Source: a virus. Taken from it: DNA of 64,000 bases. Under the pieces are notes generated by a model, which was not told where the DNA came from, made no database searches, and saw nothing but the letters and a program-made list of their open reading frames with translations. Position numbers and translations under genes: made by a program. Location: positions 62,922 through 126,921 of the IMG/VR virus record IMGVR_UViG_3300045051_000978; one strand, given 5' to 3'. This document shows, one piece after another, positions 3,036 through 22,236 of the stretch. Position 1 is the first letter of the stretch; each line of letters opens with the position of its first letter.

Positions 3036-3376
3036 TCGAGCCTTCCGAAATCGTAGACAGTCTGCTCGAAGCCTCGGGCAGCAAAACGCGCCGTCTGATT
3101 CTTCAGAAAATGGATGCTGTGCGAAAGCGTCCAGGCTTGAGCGCAAATTACGCTCAACTCGTCTCAGGCCCATTCGGTGCCATTCCATCGTATGCCGAAG
3201 AGGACCCCAACTCGGAGTGGTGGGATAGTTCTGCCGCTCAAAACCTGTTGCGAACGCTGACCGACATGCTGTCCCCTGACAGCGATTACGGTGTCAAACC
3301 CGGTGGGCCGACCCACGTGTACCCCGGTGCCCGTCAGAGCTGGCAGAAGACTGACCGCGATGTTGCCGGCCGATAG
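3032..3376 (+). CDS. Hypothetical protein, IVxxLLE-tag family
   Basis: ATGA-coupled start at 3032; N-terminus MIEPSEIVDSLLEAS. Confidence 0.65.
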   Translation: MIEPSEIVDSLLEASGSKTRRLILQKMDAVRKRPGLSANYAQLVSGPFGAIPSYAEEDPNSEWWDSSAAQNLLRTLTDMLSPDSDYGVKPGGPTHVYPGARQSWQKTDRDVAGR

Positions 3377-12723: not shown

Positions 12724-13561
12724 GCTCAGCGTAGAAAGCCGAGAAGGTGACGGGCAGAATTTCGGACGTGCGCAGCCGCATGTCGTCGGGCAGATGCACG
12801 CGGACGTTTACAAATCCGCGATCCATGAGGTGCTGCCGAATGGTGCGCGCAATGTCGCCGACGTTCTGCCGCGTCATCTTCTGCCGCAGCCTTCGCCCAC
12901 CTGACGCGTGCGTGATGACGCGGGCGCTTACGTTGACGATTCCCTTCCCCTCGTACCAGTTGACGTGCTCGATCTCGTAGACACCTGGCACGACAGCGCG
13001 CAGCTTCGGCAGGAGATCGCCGTGCTCGTTGGGCCACTGAATCTCGTCGGCGATTGAGCCGTCGTCGTCCAGGCTCTCTTGGCGCGAACCAAACTTGCGC
13101 TGCCACTCCTGTTCCTTCCAGAGCCTGCGTTTCTTCGCGATGGACCACCAGTCCCTGTACTTCGGCGGCGCGTACAGCTTGGGCGCGACCCTGAACGAGA
13201 CCATGCCTCGCCCAGGCGCATCACTGAGGTTCACGTAGACCTCCACGACAAAAAGATCGTGGGCCGTCGCGAAGCGCTCTGCACCGCGGCGCAGACGCGT
13301 GCGTAGAGCCGACTGTGATGTCTCGGGCGGAGCCTGTACGTCAACCTGGAGGTAAACGTCCCGGTCATCGTGGCCGAGATCGCGGCTGTCGTGGGCCAGG
13401 TGAAACTTCCAGGGTTGAAGATTGTCGTTGAAGAATTTGACGACCTCTTCTTTTGAAAACGCCGTGGGCGACGCGGCACGAACCAGCTCCTCCGAGTCAA
13501 AGTCATCGGGCGCTCCATCTTCCAGGAGCGCCCGCGCAACCGAACTGGCCGACGAGATCAC
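12683..13561 (-). CDS. Hypothetical two-module protein, IVxxLLE-tag family
   Basis: MISSASSVARALLEDG...DDFDSEEL; internal QESLDDDGSIADEIQ; TAGTTAG 3 nt before the GTG. Confidence 0.7.
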   Translation of the reverse strand: MISSASSVARALLEDGAPDDFDSEELVRAASPTAFSKEEVVKFFNDNLQPWKFHLAHDSRDLGHDDRDVYLQVDVQAPPETSQSALRTRLRRGAERFATAHDLFVVEVYVNLSDAPGRGMVSFRVAPKLYAPPKYRDWWSIAKKRRLWKEQEWQRKFGSRQESLDDDGSIADEIQWPNEHGDLLPKLRAVVPGVYEIEHVNWYEGKGIVNVSARVITHASGGRRLRQKMTRQNVGDIARTIRQHLMDRGFVNVRVHLPDDMRLRTSEILPVTFSAFYAEPSNPLPVPEPPAA

Positions 13562-13914
13562 GCCCTAACTAGCGGCGTCTGCGCGGCCAGCCATGCCTGG
13601 TAGCAGCGTTCCGCGGCCAGCTTGGAATCGTCGCGAGCACTCATCATCTCGCGAGCGCGTTGCTTGGCCTTGAACAGCAATCCTGTCGGGAACCAGTGCG
13701 GCGCGGCAACGCTCAGGCGCTGACGGATCGCCTCGTAGCGTGGCGTATCCACCTCCGCCCGCTGCTTCACAGCGCTGCCTGAGTTCGGGTTGACGGACCG
13801 AAGCCGGTGCTTGTGCGCCCACTTCAGGTCACGGATGTTGGCACTCAGCTGTCTGTACTCGGCGCGCCACTCAGAACGCCACAGCAGGTAATCTTCCTTG
13901 GTCTTGAATTCCAT
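13558..13914 (-). CDS. Helical phage hypothetical protein
   Basis: FKTKEDYLLWRSEWRAEYRQLSANIR; last gene of the pth2-like operon. Confidence 0.65.
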   Translation of the reverse strand: MEFKTKEDYLLWRSEWRAEYRQLSANIRDLKWAHKHRLRSVNPNSGSAVKQRAEVDTPRYEAIRQRLSVAAPHWFPTGLLFKAKQRAREMMSARDDSKLAAERCYQAWLAAQTPLVRA

Positions 13915-13916
13915 AA

Positions 13917-14153
13917 TCAGCGATCAAATACGGGGTTGATGTCAGCCAGTCTGTAAACGTTATCGACGCGCCTGTCGTTCTCCTTCCAGTCCTTGTTGAT
14001 GGACTCGGCGAAGCGACACGCAGCCGCGTCATCCTCGAAGGTCAGCACTTCCGTCTGCGTATCGGTTCGCCGGCAACAGCCGCAGAAGTAGCCGTTGCCA
14101 ACGGTGTAAACAACGAGGTAGGGCACCTACGTGGGTTCAGTCTGTTCGCTCAT
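13917..14153 (-). CDS. Small Cys-motif protein with an in-frame TAG at codon 9 (readthrough candidate; alternative GTG start at 14126)
   Basis: ATG at 14153 is coupled to the pth2 stop: MSEQTEPT-TAG-VPYLVVYTVGNGYFCGCCRR. Confidence 0.5.
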
Positions 14154-14578
14154 GGTATCAGTCGAAGGCGCTTGGTGATGTGTTCCACTTCGTCTCTGGT
14201 GGCCGGGCCAAATCCGAGCGCCGTAACGGTCGGCTCGCCGCCAAAGAAATCGGGGCATCCTGAGTCCACGACCAGGAAATGGGGGATGCCAGAGGAAGCG
14301 CAGAGATCGGCTGCGCGCAGGAGATGAGAGTAGGACGCGGTGAGGGCGACCTTGGTGCCAGGAAGGTCAGCAGCGTACGCACGCGCCACCTCCGGCCGGG
14401 AGGACTGCGAGGACAAAAAAGAGCCCAGGAACGCGTGTCCAGCTTGGCTGGCAGCTTTTCCTGGGGTCATGCCGGCGTCGGAGCGGACGACGGCGTACAG
14501 ACGAAGCGTTGGGTCAGACGACACCTCTTCCGTGAGGATCGGAGGAGGGGTAGAGTTGGAAACCTACGTCGGCTTCAC
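14150..14578 (-). CDS. Peptidyl-tRNA hydrolase, Pth2-like, with an in-frame TAG at codon 5 (alternative GTG start at 14524)
   Basis: LYAVVRSDAGMTPGKAASQAGHA...TKVAL...VDSG...TVTALGFGP; upstream GTG AAG CCG ACG TAG is in frame. Confidence 0.8.
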
Positions 14579-14585
14579 GTGGGAC

Positions 14586-14614
14586 ACTTTTGCTTGAAGC
14601 GTTGAAGGTGTCAA
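14586..14614 (-). promoter_or_regulatory. Sigma70-like promoter of the pth2 operon
   Basis: TTGACA-N17-AAAAGT, 7 nt before the GTG at 14578 (perfect -35, weak -10). Confidence 0.5.
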
Positions 14615-14622
14615 GCGCGAGT

Positions 14623-15030
14623 TCAGAACTGACGGTGAAAAGCTTTGATCAGCTCTTCACCGCCGGCATCCAGTGCCTTCAGGCGCTTGCGCACGCTGTG
14701 CTTCCCACCGTGGTCACGACAGGAGACGTGCCGACCCTGCACGCCGTGGAACACCTCAGCTTGGTAACCGATACTGTCGAGGTAAACGTCCAATCGCCAA
14801 TCGGGCAAGCGCCCAGTGAACACCTGAACGTCTACAGTTCTGACGATTACGAAGCCGGCACCTTTGACGCCACAGAGCTTCAGCTGCCCAGGTTTCACGA
14901 CCTCGACAGATCGAAGATGAAAGGCAGACCCTTCGGAAATGATCACAGGCTGCGTGCCGTTCCGCATGACCGGAGTTGGGCGTGTGAACACAGCCAGCAA
15001 ACCATCACGGACTGCCTTCTCGTGCTTCAT
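14623..15030 (-). CDS. Hypothetical protein
   Basis: ATGA-coupled ORF. Confidence 0.5.
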   Translation of the reverse strand: MKHEKAVRDGLLAVFTRPTPVMRNGTQPVIISEGSAFHLRSVEVVKPGQLKLCGVKGAGFVIVRTVDVQVFTGRLPDWRLDVYLDSIGYQAEVFHGVQGRHVSCRDHGGKHSVRKRLKALDAGGEELIKAFHRQF

Positions 15031-15554
15031 GCCTGGATGGTTGGAGGCGTGGGGCGCTCAGGCGCAGGCTCCGCGGCGGGCGCAGAGACCGCAGACTTCT
15101 TGGGTGGCGCAGACTTCTTGGGTGCCGTCGGTTTGGGCGTAGGCTTCTTGGGTGCCGCGGTCGGCTTCGCCTTGGTCTTCAACGCAGCCTTGGCTTTCCT
15201 GTGTGCCGCCCAGCGCTTCTTGGCTGCCGCGACGATCTTGGCGCGGCCGGCTTCGCTCAAACGGTACGGAGCCTTGCTCGACTGCTTGGGCGCGGCCCCG
15301 TAAACCGTAGACGGCTGCACGACGCGCACCGTCGCGTCGGTGACCAAGCCCATGCGCTGAAGAATGGTGCCGACAGCACCACGACACGTCTGCGCGAACG
15401 GCTGGGCAGGGTCGTACAAATGCCAGATGTGCCACCAGAGGTTCAGATACTTGGGCTTGAGCATCTCGTCGATGGCCCGCACATCGAACTGCATGCACGC
15501 CACAGTCCATCTCTGCATGAACTGCTTGATCTCGGCTTGGGACGGGGTCTTCAT
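15027..15554 (-). CDS. Protein with a basic histone-like C-terminal tail
   Basis: LSEAGRAKIVAAAKKRWAAHRKAK followed by K/P/A-rich APKK repeats. Confidence 0.65.
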   Translation of the reverse strand: MKTPSQAEIKQFMQRWTVACMQFDVRAIDEMLKPKYLNLWWHIWHLYDPAQPFAQTCRGAVGTILQRMGLVTDATVRVVQPSTVYGAAPKQSSKAPYRLSEAGRAKIVAAAKKRWAAHRKAKAALKTKAKPTAAPKKPTPKPTAPKKSAPPKKSAVSAPAAEPAPERPTPPTIQA

Positions 15555-15557
15555 GGA

Positions 15558-15854
15558 TTACTGTCTCGACGCCAACGCCCTTTCGTAGAAGAAAGCACGG
15601 TGCTCCGGAGGAACGCGACAAATCACGACCGTGGGTGAAAGCTGGGTGATCATCGCTTCATACCCGGTGTTCCCGCCTTGGGTAAACCGGACAACCAGCA
15701 GGCGCATCGTGGGCGAAATGCCTTCAAACCCAGAAGCTGTCCCGCCTTTCGGAGCCGGCGGAGGCGGGTTGCACGCCGTCCAGACGAACTCCGTTGCGCG
15801 GGCGCGATCCATCAGATCGCAGACTTGGGCTTGAACTCCCTTGAACAAGGACAC
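15558..15854 (-). CDS. Hypothetical protein, probably leaderless
   Basis: GTG lies 6 nt after a TACAGT -10 element. Confidence 0.55.
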   Translation of the reverse strand: MSLFKGVQAQVCDLMDRARATEFVWTACNPPPPAPKGGTASGFEGISPTMRLLVVRFTQGGNTGYEAMITQLSPTVVICRVPPEHRAFFYERALASRQ

Positions 15855-15860
15855 GGCAGA

Positions 15861-15888
15861 ACTGTATACGATTCTGCCGTTCCGTCAA
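15861..15888 (-). promoter_or_regulatory. Sigma70-like promoter, GTATAC class, with the -10 region inside a 9-bp inverted repeat
   Basis: TTGACG-N16-TACAGT; ACGGCAGAA(15853-61)/TTCTGCCGT(15872-80). Confidence 0.65.
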
Positions 15889-15896
15889 CCGCAATC

Positions 15897-16853
15897 TCAG
15901 CTGTACCCGGCGAACTCGAAACCGTCAGGCAGGCCATCACCGTAGCCGTTCACCTCGTTTACGTGCCGCTCTGGATCGTGCCGGATCGTGATGTATACGC
16001 GGTCCATCTCGCCACGGGGCATCGCCTGTCCAGGCTGAAGCTTGATCTTGGAATTGTCGCAGAAAACCGTGACCGTGTACCCCTTGTAGCCGTAATCGGC
16101 GATCTCGGCAAAATGACGACGCAGGTCCTCGTAGATGCGCTGCATGTCCGACCTGGTGATCCTGCGGTCGAGCGACCGAGGAACCGCGGTGACGCACAGC
16201 TCCTGCGGACCTTTTGACGAACGCCGCCGGTAGACGCTGACGCCGAAGCCCATTCCGCGGAAGACCCGGCGGATTGAAGGGATGTCGATTTGCATGAGCG
16301 GCTCCATGCTCGAAAGCAGCTCGTCGAAATCGTACGCGCTGTCGTCTTCGACGGACTCGCTGATGCTCTGACCGATCTTGCGGAACCTGTCGAGGACCTG
16401 GCCGCGCTCCTGCCAGTCTCTGATTGAGCTTGCCTGCCCGATGACCTCCTCGATCTGCTCCAGGAAGTACCTCAGGCGCGACCCCTCGATGTCAGGTGTT
16501 TTGACGACGAGCTTCGTGTTCGCCTGAGGCGTCGCACGCGGATTGTGCGGGTCATCGCTATCCGTAGACAAAACTGCCCCAAGCCATTCAGTGAGCTGCT
16601 CCCCTGAATCACCGACGCGAGTGCGACGAATCAAAGTGACGACAAGACCGGACCATGTGAACGCGCTCCAATCGCTGCCAATATCCCACGCTGGATCGAG
16701 CTTGAAGAGCTTTCGGTACGGACCTTCGGGTTCGCGCTTGTTGGTCGTGTAGCCGTACTCGCGAAGCGCAGACCTGTAGTCGAGCGCCTCGACCTCGTCG
16801 GTAAAGTCGAAGTCGTCCTCCAACAGCCTGTTTACGATTGCAGCAGCGCGCAC
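15897..16853 (-). CDS. Hypothetical two-module protein, IVxxLLE-tag family
   Basis: MRAAAIVNRLLEDDFDFTDEVEALD; internal ISESVEDDSAYDFDELL; TAGTTAC 3 nt before the GTG. Confidence 0.7.
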   Translation of the reverse strand: MRAAAIVNRLLEDDFDFTDEVEALDYRSALREYGYTTNKREPEGPYRKLFKLDPAWDIGSDWSAFTWSGLVVTLIRRTRVGDSGEQLTEWLGAVLSTDSDDPHNPRATPQANTKLVVKTPDIEGSRLRYFLEQIEEVIGQASSIRDWQERGQVLDRFRKIGQSISESVEDDSAYDFDELLSSMEPLMQIDIPSIRRVFRGMGFGVSVYRRRSSKGPQELCVTAVPRSLDRRITRSDMQRIYEDLRRHFAEIADYGYKGYTVTVFCDNSKIKLQPGQAMPRGEMDRVYITIRHDPERHVNEVNGYGDGLPDGFEFAGYS

Positions 16854-19944: not shown

Positions 19945-20199
19945 TCAGCCGTGCAGTATTTGCGGCCCCAACGTAGCGCCCATCACGCGAGGCGGCTCAG
20001 GAAGGTCAAGCGGTCTGAGCGCTATCCGCACCATCACCTGCGCATAGCTGCTGTTGAATGTGTTCTGGAGCATCTCTCCCTGAAGCGTCCAGCCCTTGGC
20101 CAGAAGGGCGTTTACCCCTGTCTCGAAGTCCTCGGCGGTTGCGGCGCGCACGATCTTCAGCTCTACGGGTTGCGGATGCAGCGGCATGTTCATGCTCAC
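19945..20199 (-). CDS. DUF1737-like small protein
   Basis: KIVRAATAEDFETGVNALLAKGWTLQG...YAQVMV. Confidence 0.55.
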   Translation of the reverse strand: MSMNMPLHPQPVELKIVRAATAEDFETGVNALLAKGWTLQGEMLQNTFNSSYAQVMVRIALRPLDLPEPPRVMGATLGPQILHG

Positions 20200-20878
20200 G
20201 TAGAACCGACTTGGCGCGAATCTTCCGCCGAAGCTTGTCCAAAATCCGACCGTGCATCTGGCATACGGCAGCCAGCGTTACCCCGAAGTGGTTGGCGATA
20301 GCCTCGAACGTCGAATCGTGCATGTAGCGCTGAATCAAGACGTAGCGCTCGCGCTCAGAAAGGTCGTCGAGATAAGGAGCCAGGGACCGAAGCTCGTCGC
20401 TGAGTTCGACGGCAGCGCTGGGCGTCGGCCGGTCGTCTGGCAACACCTCTTCCGGGGCGACTCCGTGGCAATAGGTGTCGATCAGCTTGAACAGCTCGAC
20501 TTCAGACTCCGGCAGGCTGAGCAGCTCGCCGATCACGTCATGCGCGACATCCGCGCCGCGCAGCTGCTGAATCGTCTGCCTGTGCTCGTCGTACCGGTTG
20601 AAGCGCTCCAGCTCAGATCGCGTGAAGAAGCTCTGCCGGCGAAGCTCGTCGTAGATCGCGCCTCGAATTCTGAGGGCCGCGTACGCCTTGAAAGTTGCTG
20701 GATTACCTCCAACGCCTCGAACCGCCGCCTTCCACAGCCCTACGAGCCCTGCCGAGCGTAGCGCCTCAATGTCCAGCGACCCTACCTGGCTGAGGCCCGA
20801 GATCACGTTCTGAGTGACCCCAAGCGCGTACCTGTAGTATTCCTCGAATAGGCGCTCAGCCTCGACGTTCGGCTGCAC
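20006..20878 (-). CDS. Sigma70-family sigma factor, FliA/WhiG-like
   Basis: Region 2 LRSAGLVGLWKAA...FKAYAALRIRGAIYDELR; region 4 LSERERYVLIQRY...TFEAIANHFGVTLAAVCQMHGRILDKLR. Confidence 0.85.
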   Translation of the reverse strand: MQPNVEAERLFEEYYRYALGVTQNVISGLSQVGSLDIEALRSAGLVGLWKAAVRGVGGNPATFKAYAALRIRGAIYDELRRQSFFTRSELERFNRYDEHRQTIQQLRGADVAHDVIGELLSLPESEVELFKLIDTYCHGVAPEEVLPDDRPTPSAAVELSDELRSLAPYLDDLSERERYVLIQRYMHDSTFEAIANHFGVTLAAVCQMHGRILDKLRRKIRAKSVLREHEHAAASATRRAEDRARRNRRGLRDRGKRPSGQGLDASGRDAPEHIQQQLCAGDGADSAQTA

Positions 20879-20886
20879 GCCATAAC

Positions 20887-22236
20887 CTACGCATGGGGAT
20901 CGGCCAAAACGCCAGTGGTAAACGTCTTCTCAACGCTGGTGCGCCCTTCGGAGTAGAGCGCCAGCGGAATGCGAAGCCCGACCGAGAACAGGTTCGCAAG
21001 GTCGTCCGTTTTGAGATTTTCGACGCGGCAGGACGTGATCGGACGCACACGTTCCAGCTGCGCAGACTGACGTTTACGCGCTTCCAGGTCGTCAGCGTCG
21101 AGCGGCTTGAGGGCGAACGGCTGCGAACTGCGAAGGCCCTCGGTAAGGCGAAAATCACCCACGCGAGCAATCTGGTCGAGGCAGGTCACTGCCAGCGCGT
21201 CGAGCCCGCCGTTTGTCTTGGCGACATCGATGCTGTACCGGAGGATGTCCAGGTTCCACCAGCCGCAGCGAAGCTTGCTCTGCCACGGATTCTCGGGGTT
21301 GTACTCGTCCGGCAGCGCCTGCGTAAGCAGATCATCCTGACCTACAAAAGGCCCGGCTCCGTGGCGTGTGGCGTAGGCGCGGATGACTCCGATGACCGTC
21401 CGTGGGCACCTGACCTCAGCTTCGTCCAGGACGACGTGCGCGTTGCGCGCCGTGGTGGTGGACCAAGTCGTGTACGGATGGAATCCGTAATTCTCGTCGA
21501 GGAGAACGCCCTGGGCACCCTCCATGATCGCCGTATCGTACCGGTTGAGCAGCTCCGCAACCTCCATCGGATCGTTCAGGATCGTGACCTTCTGGCCCCA
21601 GGCCACGTAGCGCTGGACCAGGTCTGAAACAGGCACGTCCATGGTGCTCAACTCCTTGACAACGATCTTGTTGGTCAGATCGAGCGGAAAGCGCCCCACA
21701 GTCTGCCGCATCACGGTTCGCAGGTGCTGAAGCTTGGTTTCAAGCAACTCAGGCTGAAGAACATCTTCGATCACCGGAGCCATGGTGAGCGCCGCGGTGG
21801 CGTAGGCGACCGTCTCGCCGATGCCCATACCGCAGCTGCCGTGCCGGTTGTCGCCGCGGGCCAGCTCGCGCAGCCGGTTGGCCATCCGGTGGTAGGGCGT
21901 GGTCATCAGGCACCGGCCGTCCACGTACATGCGGTTGAACGCTCCGGTGACGCCTTGCTTCACGAGGTGAGCTTCCTCGTGGACCATCGCCAGCGGGTTG
22001 ACCAGACACGGCCCGGCCAGGAGCGTCCGGCACCCTGGAACAAACGTCCCTGAGCCGAACTGCGCGAAGCAGTGGTGCTTCCCTGAGATCGCATCGACGA
22101 CGTTATGGCCGGCTTGGGCTCCTCCGTTGAAACGGACGACCAGCTCGGCTCCGTACCGGCGCACCAGGGCATCCACCACGGTGCCCTTGCCGGAGTCTCC
22201 GTATCCCAGGTCAACGACGACGAACGCGTTTTTCAC
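20887..22236 (-). CDS. Adenylosuccinate synthetase-like protein (divergent PurA family)
   Basis: DLGYGDSGKG, RFNGGAQAGHNV, HGSCGMGIGET, MEGAQGVLLD, TRHGAGPF. Confidence 0.85.
   Translation of the reverse strand: MKNAFVVVDLGYGDSGKGTVVDALVRRYGAELVVRFNGGAQAGHNVVDAISGKHHCFAQFGSGTFVPGCRTLLAGPCLVNPLAMVHEEAHLVKQGVTGAFNRMYVDGRCLMTTPYHRMANRLRELARGDNRHGSCGMGIGETVAYATAALTMAPVIEDVLQPELLETKLQHLRTVMRQTVGRFPLDLTNKIVVKELSTMDVPVSDLVQRYVAWGQKVTILNDPMEVAELLNRYDTAIMEGAQGVLLDENYGFHPYTTWSTTTARNAHVVLDEAEVRCPRTVIGVIRAYATRHGAGPFVGQDDLLTQALPDEYNPENPWQSKLRCGWWNLDILRYSIDVAKTNGGLDALAVTCLDQIARVGDFRLTEGLRSSQPFALKPLDADDLEARKRQSAQLERVRPITSCRVENLKTDDLANLFSVGLRIPLALYSEGRTSVEKTFTTGVLADPHA

Follow-up and report, generated by a model that had tools for sequence, protein, structure and literature searches.

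The stretch of DNA analysed here, 64,000 nucleotides (nt) that we refer to below as the window, is the right-hand half of a virus record of 126,921 base pairs (IMGVR_UViG_3300045051_000978; 60% G+C; estimated completeness 76%). On its minus strand, the window carries a gene for a Pth2-like protein, a putative peptidyl-tRNA hydrolase, and the reading frame of this gene extends upstream, through an in-frame amber codon, into a short leader with a start codon of its own. Two further open reading frames (ORFs), of 69 and 118 amino acids (aa), follow directly downstream (Table 1). Among the other proteins encoded in the window are a virion protein, a helicase, a sigma-factor-like protein and a homologue of PurZ-like adenylosuccinate synthetase. 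The sequencing runs that best match the stretch are rhizosphere metagenomes; two runs, X3 and X4, cover it in part, and no RNA run is among those listed for it. A megablast search of window positions 13000-16000 against the phage collection returned no match.

Table 1. Positions of the features discussed, in window coordinates
Feature	Position	Strand	Basis or remark
-35-like hexamer TTGACA, promoter of the pth2 leader	14609..14614	-	read in the sequence; same hexamer in L009, L010, L012, L013, L014
-10-like hexamer AAAAGT, 7 nt 5' of GTG 14578	14586..14591	-	read in the sequence; 17-nt spacer from TTGACA
GTG start of the putative gated long form	14576..14578	-	aligns with ATG/GTG of the L009, L010, L011 and L013 leaders
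In-frame amber TAG, codon 5 (the gate)	14564..14566	-	context ACG TAG GTT TC common to L010, L012 and others; +4 base is G
13 codons VSNSTPPPILTEE between the amber codon and GTG 14524	14525..14563	-	codon-for-codon homology to L009
Pth2-like domain ORF, 124 codons from GTG 14524, stop TGA 14152-50	14150..14524	-	PF01981
8-codon mini-ORF, ATG 14153-51 overlapping the pth2 stop TGA 14152-50, ending at TAG 14129-27	14127..14153	-	read in the sequence
69-aa ORF of a small GNGY-C-x-CC-R family, start most likely GTG 14126	13917..14126	-	28 relatives at E<=1e-3
118-aa ORF, conserved downstream neighbour of gated Pth2	13558..13914	-	tblastn E<=1e-3 in 24 loci

The Pth2-like protein and its interrupted leader

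The affiliation of the protein is readily detectable by comparison both with the family profile and with the sequences of proteins of solved structure. The match to PF01981 (E 9.4e-19; 68.2 bits against a curated cut-off of 23) covers positions 2-114 of the 115 in the profile, and a six-frame search of the genome yields a single PTH2 match, at 67.5 bits. In the alignment with PDB 2zv3 (E 2.5e-10), residues 8-123 correspond to residues 2-115 of chain A, so the domain is complete, the first beta-strand included. Two residues that are invariant in 27 sequences, K23 and D87, align with a lysine and an aspartate of 2zv3, which may correspond to the conserved pair proposed to be catalytic in archaeal Pth2. 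The protein resembles the archaeal and eukaryotic Pth2 proteins of solved structure (PDB 2zv3, 1q7s/Bit1, 1wn2, 1xty) in that it matches over residues 8-123 and exceeds the PF01981 cut-off; unlike these, it belongs to a phage subfamily with the motifs GM-x-PGK-x-ASQAGHA and DSGC, and judged by its sequence it is a putative hydrolase. None of the solved proteins has been reported to be gated, the term that we use here for genes with an early in-frame stop codon (the gate) between a nearby start codon and the domain.

Upstream of the domain, the minus strand reads GTG-AAG-CCG-ACG-TAG-GTT-TCC-AAC and continues in frame, through a total of 13 codons after the amber codon, to GTG 14524-22 and the PF01981 domain. 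These 13 codons can be translated solely from upstream of the TAG, and they are homologous to the corresponding codons of L009, the closest relative among the loci compared (67% identity; VSDRSPSPIPSGD), with neither an indel nor a stop codon. The upstream start, GTG 14578, is separated by three codons from TAG 14566-64, a distance within the limit of eight codons set for the gated class, and is in frame with the domain. Between this stop and beta-strand 1, the interval that in the gated class is devoid of ATG, GTG and TTG, the window copy contains GTG 14524, located 18 codons before Met19. The leader peptides of the relatives are closely similar, namely (with a slash for the stop) MKPT/VSN in the window, MKDT/VSN in L013, MKET/VSD in L010 and MKFT/VSD in L009, where the stop is TAA, and the core of the leader conforms to the nucleotide consensus [A/G]TG-AAN-NNN-ACR-TAR-GTW-TCN-RAC (alignment A4).

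The sequence in front of the leader follows a common plan as well. In five relatives (L009, L010, L012, L013 and L014), TTGACA is followed by a spacer of 15-18 nt, a -10-like hexamer and 7-9 nt up to the start codon, a layout which, like that of the window, implies an mRNA that would be leaderless or nearly so. A scan for sigma-70 promoters lists no site in the region because AAAAGT matches at only three of six positions, and the promoter is proposed here on the strength of the architecture common to the relatives. In a preliminary description of this DNA, the two hexamers, the GTG and the first amber codon had been sited exactly where we find them. The same description pointed to an imperfect hairpin that follows the first TAG. 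In the minimum-energy fold, CCTCCTCCG (14548-40) does indeed pair with CGGAAGAGG (14532-24), yet this fold is nothing out of the ordinary (z = -1.01, with 29 of 200 shuffled sequences as stable), and on this ground we set the hairpin aside as a functional element.

Two contigs from two other studies, X5 and X6, are about 95% identical to this region, with 42 differences in about 846 bases. Among the 40 of 44 differing places that are listed, none falls on either of the two TAG codons of the locus (the second is discussed below), which argues that these codons are not assembly errors. Among the same listed places, the sole difference in a leader codon, at 14555, is a synonymous change in the third position; spacer positions 14602, 14584 and 14580 vary, and no change is found in the hexamers. 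A feature of the closest relative bears on the status of the window copy. In L009, a second TAA comes five codons after the counterpart of GTG 14524; the window is devoid of this 18-nt segment, so that an ungated short form could be produced from GTG 14524. In the reading favoured below, the window copy is a relaxed version of the gated design.

Early stops and cognate tRNAs in the subfamily

So is the early stop a peculiarity of one gene or a property of its family? We compared 61 loci, 58 from IMG/VR and three from GenBank phages, which together with the window make 62 sequences, by tracing the reading frame upstream with the invariant Met19 of the GM-x-PGK motif as the anchor; given that four lacked this anchor and three were duplicates, 54 loci besides the window were left. 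Going upstream from the domain, one meets TAG as the first in-frame stop in 45 of these 54, TGA in seven and TAA in two; because the IMG/VR loci were retrieved with peptide patterns of this subfamily, the distribution holds for the subfamily rather than for phage Pth2 genes at large. The baseline frequency of TAG among 1,289 other stops that bound ORFs in the same loci is 26.8% (binomial p = 6e-18). No fewer than 43 of the 45 TAG loci lack any ATG, GTG or TTG that would include beta-strand 1 in the product, and in 35 of these 43 gated loci the TAG is preceded, at most eight codons away, by a start codon, in many cases one with an AGGAG at a suitable distance. Three leaders (L016, L017 and L026) contain two in-frame TAGs. 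The preliminary description had proposed a search for conserved stops of this kind, with coding-like sequence on both sides, in homologues; the homologues do retain the early in-frame stop between homologous sequences, and the amber codon before Pth2 accordingly appears to be a conserved device, not damage.

A tRNA with the anticodon CUA, which would read the amber codon, had been anticipated in the preliminary description, and a search of the genome finds one. ARAGORN identifies 19 tRNAs in the phage, 18 of them clustered at 0.2-9.3 kilobases (kb), with the tRNA-CUA standing alone at C1 36958-37031 on the minus strand, outside the window, and with a TTGACC-N17-TAAACA site of its own. This tRNA scores 45 bits against an Rfam tRNA cut-off of 29 and folds into an ordinary cloverleaf with an ordinary GG D-loop and a GTTCGA T-loop. 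No release-factor gene was found in the 76%-complete record.

The linkage between such tRNAs and the gate is apparent in the other loci. Within flanks of at most 3 kb, a tRNA-CUA gene is present in 26 of the 43 gated loci, compared to only one of 19 non-gated or control loci (Fisher p = 5e-5). The 29 flank tRNA-CUA genes, out of 87 flank tRNAs, are all located on the pth2 strand, many of them less than 200 nt away. The suppressors comprise a diverse set, with both A73 and G73 discriminators, and the tRNA-CUA of the window phage is at most 72% identical to the others. In L012 and L014, the tRNA-CUA gene is inside the leader itself (2863-2997 in both), between a mini-ORF of the MKDT-TAG type and a second TAG, in a stretch that is open in frame save for the two TAGs; here, maturation of the tRNA would compete with translation of the mRNA. 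A narrow-pattern search of whole records detected no tRNA-CUA in L010 (19% complete), L016 (49%) or L018 (100%, 543 kb), a result that does not show that the tRNA is absent. Apart from the suppressors, ARAGORN reports tRNAs with eight-base anticodon loops (gcaa, gtaa, ggaa) beside gated Pth2 genes, at L004 3402-3480 and L005 3352-3429 and about 1 kb and 0.3 kb after pth2 in L011 and L031, respectively; going by these calls, such tRNAs with four-base anticodons may be frameshift-suppressor-like.

Furthermore, the type of stop co-varies with the anticodon of the tRNA in its company. L009, with two in-frame TAA codons in the leader, has a tRNA-UUA (66 bits) 121 nt upstream. Phosso, with the leader ATG-AAG-TAT-TAG-GTT, has two tRNA-CUA genes, one of them 4.6 kb upstream of pth2. 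In Atu_ph07, an ATG and five codons precede a TGA, no start codon follows, and ARAGORN finds a tRNA-UCA; the accessible part of the paper on this phage likewise gives UCA as the anticodon of its sole non-canonical tRNA and names no target for the suppressor (PMC6102473).

The base that follows the stop shows a pattern of its own. In the gated loci, the gating TAG is followed by a purine in 40 of 43 cases, and by G at both sites in the window. In classical work, a 3' purine was reported to favour amber suppression. Following the ordinary TAG stops of the phage, a purine is found in 11 of 37 genes, compared to 88 of the 152 genes that end with TGA or TAA (p = 0.003). If purines do have this effect, the pattern would fit selection that favours readthrough where it opens the gate and disfavours it where a gene truly ends, and the low frequency of purines after ordinary TAG stops may reflect avoidance of suppression-prone contexts.

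The second amber codon and the neighbouring genes

The mini-ORF that overlaps the end of pth2 consists of the codons ATG AGC GAA CAG ACT GAA CCC ACG, followed by TAG 14129-27 and GTG 14126-24. This second amber codon, behind an ATG that overlaps the pth2 stop and in frame with the downstream ORF, had been noticed in the preliminary description along with the identity of its context with that of the first, and both observations hold: a search of both strands of the 126,921-bp genome finds the word CC[C/G]ACGTAGGT at these two sites and nowhere else. A looser form of the word, with up to one mismatch, has four matches in the window against 1.82 expected and is not enriched, given that 14 of 100 shuffles reach four.

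Does the second TAG gate the 69-aa gene in the same manner, with translation from ATG 14153 passing through the amber codon in the Pro-Thr-amber-Val context? This proposal of the preliminary description finds some encouragement in the sequence, and we nevertheless regard it as doubtful. The identical 11-mer context is confined to these two sites in the genome, and in X5 and X6 a change at 14133 makes the context of the second TAG identical to that of the first, CCGACGTAGGT. Moreover, the mini-ORF start overlaps the pth2 stop (ATGA) in a manner typical of coupling, a G occupies the +4 position, and some members of the family (P0122, P0133 and P0141) possess 6-8 extra N-terminal residues. However, most of the 23 aligned relatives begin with M-x-Y-L at the position of GTG 14126, so that the family N-termini coincide with this codon, and the viral homologues, five of five, have plain ATG starts and no common early TAG. 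Besides, a TAG right before a start is ordinary in this phage: a start within one codon after the stop is observed for 12 of 38 genes bounded by TAG as opposed to 12 of 151 bounded by TGA or TAA (p = 4e-4), and TAGG, as part of a start-associated motif resembling TAGTTAGG, is present at most 12 nt from 15 of the 189 starts, where about two such cases would be expected. Judging from these patterns, the second TAG most likely just precedes the GTG start of the 69-aa gene, and the 8-codon mini-ORF may serve as a relay in coupling; with or without a second gate, the 69-aa gene would lie in the same, probably coupled unit downstream of the gated gene. A terminator-like GTAGG-TGC-CCTAC at 14130-14118 is one of three matches against 1.9 expected and is not relied upon.

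The preliminary description also cast the 69-aa ORF as a partner of Pth2, a role that it has to cede to its neighbour: no homologue of the 69-aa ORF is found in the 61 Pth2 loci, and the conserved partner is the 118-aa ORF, detected in 24 loci, where it usually comes right behind pth2 and begins with an ordinary ATG. Its N-terminal motif resembles KEDYLLWRSEWRAEY. Pfam and PHROG searches give no family match for the ORFs neighbouring pth2, the 118-aa ORF included, and a protein atlas search with the latter produced only scores of at most 0.81, from helical look-alikes.

Several observations on the rest of the phage deserve to be recorded in their own right. Words of eight bases like TAGTTAGG are located 2-12 nt 5' of ATG or GTG starts at window 13564-13571 (minus strand) and near 3376, 17825 and 45120 (plus) and 37947 and 18174 (minus). 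AGTTA is found upstream of 12 of the 189 called genes against 0.3 expected, and the classical AGGAG shows no enrichment upstream of the called genes of the phage. The candidate roles of the motif are a ribosome-binding signal, a regulator site and a promoter element for a phage sigma factor. The sigma-factor-like protein (window 20006-20878, minus strand; PHROG 351, E 2e-16) may, going by this match, direct phage-specific promoters, and a 449-aa protein (20887-22236, minus strand) matches PHROG 1211, the PurZ-type adenylosuccinate synthetase, at E 2.9e-80, which raises the possibility that 2-aminoadenine may replace adenine in the phage DNA. Outside the window, at C1 48611-50362 (L105), two tandem paralogous genes for proteins of about 291 aa resembling a baseplate or tail-fibre connector are separated by a TAG and one codon; a domain of the T4 gp9/10 N-terminal type begins at the second gene's own start, which indicates that these are two separate genes.

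Proposed suppressor gating of Pth2 and its alternatives

Conservation of the leader, the early stop found across the family, linkage to a cognate tRNA and the covariation of stop and anticodon all suggest a role for suppression in the expression of Pth2. In the scheme that we consider likely, the long form would be synthesized only where the phage tRNA-CUA prevails over release factor 1 at codon 5, and the level of the enzyme would thus report the activity of the suppressor. Transcription from TTGACA-N17-AAAAGT would yield a leaderless or nearly leaderless pth2 mRNA; translation would start at GTG 14578 and meet the UAG at codon 5, where release factor 1 would terminate a peptide of four residues unless suppression occurs, that is, unless the tRNA-CUA inserts an amino acid and translation proceeds into the hydrolase. 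How much of the long form is made would then track how active the suppressor tRNA is in relation to termination. The two ORFs that follow immediately, of 69 and 118 aa, have stops and starts that overlap or abut, and translational coupling would probably draw them into the same expression unit.

Several facts weigh against this scheme. The tRNA-CUA of the window phage is on the same (minus) strand as pth2 and 40 kb away from it, not adjacent; its anticodon stem contains an A31-C39 mismatch beside the anticodon loop, and it is at most 66% identical to the other tRNAs of the phage. Translation from GTG 14524 would produce the N-terminus MSSDPTLRLYA, which resembles those of ungated homologues (MSDPTLRLYA in P0019 and MPDPTLRLYA in P0060), so the window copy could work without readthrough. 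One contig from run X4 (212 nt, depth 3.3) lacks one base at 14526; if this deletion is real and not the assembly error that it may be, the leader and the Pth2 domain would be in different frames. Nor is gating universal among phage Pth2 genes. Gating is confined to Phosso (TAG) and Atu_ph07 (TGA) in a set of 11 GenBank phages, and the other nine, EBPR siphovirus 2, CcrMagneto, phiCbK, RsoM2USA, Sandalphon, XacN1, SCTP-2, RAS14 and Xoo-sp13, have an ordinary ATG start; the retrieval of the IMG/VR loci by subfamily peptide patterns has to be kept in mind here, too. Two of the ungated phages, RsoM2USA (L064/L098-L099) and XacN1 (L100), have tRNA-CUA genes all the same, and their suppressors must have another target, or none. 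The ungated Pth2 of XacN1 is accordingly rejected as the target of its tRNA-CUA genes; in the accessible part of the XacN1 paper, a target for these was sought and none was found. Finally, the gene counts given for the phage derive from a simple codon-usage gene caller of our own, which called 189 genes that cover 89% of the genome.

Some of the same facts would be expected if the leader were a relic, that is, if GTG 14524 were the only start used for Pth2 and the preceding GTG-AAG-CCG-ACG-TAG were a decaying remnant of the gated design, functionless in this phage. The homologue-like N-terminus from GTG 14524, the loss of the second stop that is present in L009, the tRNA-CUA that is no longer adjacent and the one-base deletion in X4 are all compatible with decay. 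Yet the leader, TTGACA and the 13 in-frame codons have been kept without a stop or an indel in comparison with L009, neither TAG differs among the listed places in the 95% relatives X5 and X6, and the genome retains a tRNA-CUA that passes Rfam. Furthermore, GGAAGAGG directly abuts GTG 14524, and this zero spacing makes for a poor arrangement because a Shine-Dalgarno sequence needs spacing from the start codon. On balance, a relic appears unlikely.

Could the early stop be explained with no suppression involved at all? In such a case, the mini-ORF would be an upstream ORF, with termination followed by reinitiation at the next codon or initiation at a non-canonical start after the TAG. The codon after the TAG is ATT, a rare start codon, in 10 of 43 loci, which belong to one clade, and L012 and L014 are devoid of start codons in the interval from the tRNA to the last TAG. 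Against this, the codons after the gate are mostly non-starts (GTT in nine loci, GAA in eight, and others), the Shine-Dalgarno sites in L002, L005, L008, L035 and L039 are spaced for the upstream ATG, and the prevalence of TAG in 45 of 54 loci as well as the dependence of the stop type on the anticodon of the neighbouring tRNA would be left unexplained; this possibility is very improbable. The opposite extreme, general reassignment of TAG to sense in the phage (code 15), would account for the presence of the tRNA-CUA and is rejected as exceedingly improbable. TAG ends 37 of the 189 called genes (the others end with TGA, 125, or TAA, 27), neighbours in the same frame are no more common across TAG (4 of 37) than across TGA (15 of 125) or TAA (6 of 27), and in none of the four same-frame pairs separated by TAG does a domain cross the junction.

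Returning to suppressor gating, what purpose could it serve? We favour the idea that extra peptidyl-tRNA hydrolase would be made only when, and only as far as, the suppressor is active. In the simplest terms, this would provide hydrolase capacity during readthrough, or else delay synthesis until the tRNA has accumulated. A far more elaborate view, and one that is quite unlikely, is that the tRNA and the stop-gated Pth2 comprise a dedicated, portable two-part switch, the key of which has been exchanged at least two times (UAG, UAA and UGA, each with the matching anticodon). The hydrolase would act back on suppression, for example by removing acylated or peptidyl suppressor tRNA or by clearing the products of readthrough, so that readthrough would set its own ceiling, in a tRNA-based parallel to the autoregulation of prfB; without the tRNA, the four-codon leader would be a bar-like minigene.

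The proposed arrangement shares features with a number of known systems. The gene for release factor 2, prfB, is autoregulated by an early in-frame UGA that is passed by a +1 frameshift, and its product recognises that same stop. The pth2 leader is similar in that an early in-frame stop in the gene of a translation factor would make synthesis dependent on the efficiency of termination at this site; however, the downstream ORF is in the same frame, no frameshift is called for, passage would be effected by a dedicated tRNA, and the link between product and stop is a feature of prfB, so regulation of the prfB type does not apply. In the pyrrolysine system, the tRNA-CUA encoded by pylT is found beside genes with in-frame UAG, and here as well a dedicated tRNA-CUA gene is linked to genes with an in-frame amber codon; ARAGORN labels these tRNAs 'Pyl', by the anticodon alone. 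Nevertheless, this is not the pyrrolysine system, given that PylS has no match in the 76%-complete record, that the suppressors are diverse (A73 or G73) and that of the phage has the ordinary GG D-loop and GTTCGA T-loop, and that the amber codon falls within an N-terminal leader that is not conserved, instead of at a catalytic position. The bar minigenes of phage lambda and other minigenes cause peptidyl-tRNA drop-off that requires Pth; they share with the gated loci a very short ORF (a start, 1-8 codons and a stop), and the gated product is itself a peptidyl-tRNA hydrolase homologue. Here, unlike in bar, the mini-ORF continues in frame into a protein.

A further parallel is provided by phages with recoded stop codons. 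According to the accessible part of the report on crAss-like and Lak phages, TAG is read as glutamine (code 15) by suppressor tRNAs of the phages' own, in phage genes and in hosts whose own code is the standard one, with the timing of expression as the proposed role (10.1101/2021.08.26.457843). Those phages, as described there, have many in-frame TAGs in late genes and avoid TAG as a stop, whereas the phage analysed here has one early TAG in one small gene and ends 37 of 189 genes with TAG, and in its relatives the type of stop co-varies with the neighbouring tRNA. A search of the literature found no paper that links Pth2 and suppressor tRNAs in phages.

The consequences of this arrangement extend to the annotation of the family. 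Among the best 120 database homologues, 68 are called from Met19, that is, without the first beta-strand, and nine from inside this strand, as expected if gene callers were stopped by the upstream stop, and the early TAG gate is probably the reason for the omission. More generally, the suppressor tRNAs of standard-code phages have so far been without a known target, and a conserved early stop matched to the anticodon of a linked tRNA gives them a concrete one, which is present in at least two cultured phages, Phosso and Atu_ph07. The pth2 leader would be a natural example of gene expression gated by a dedicated suppressor tRNA.

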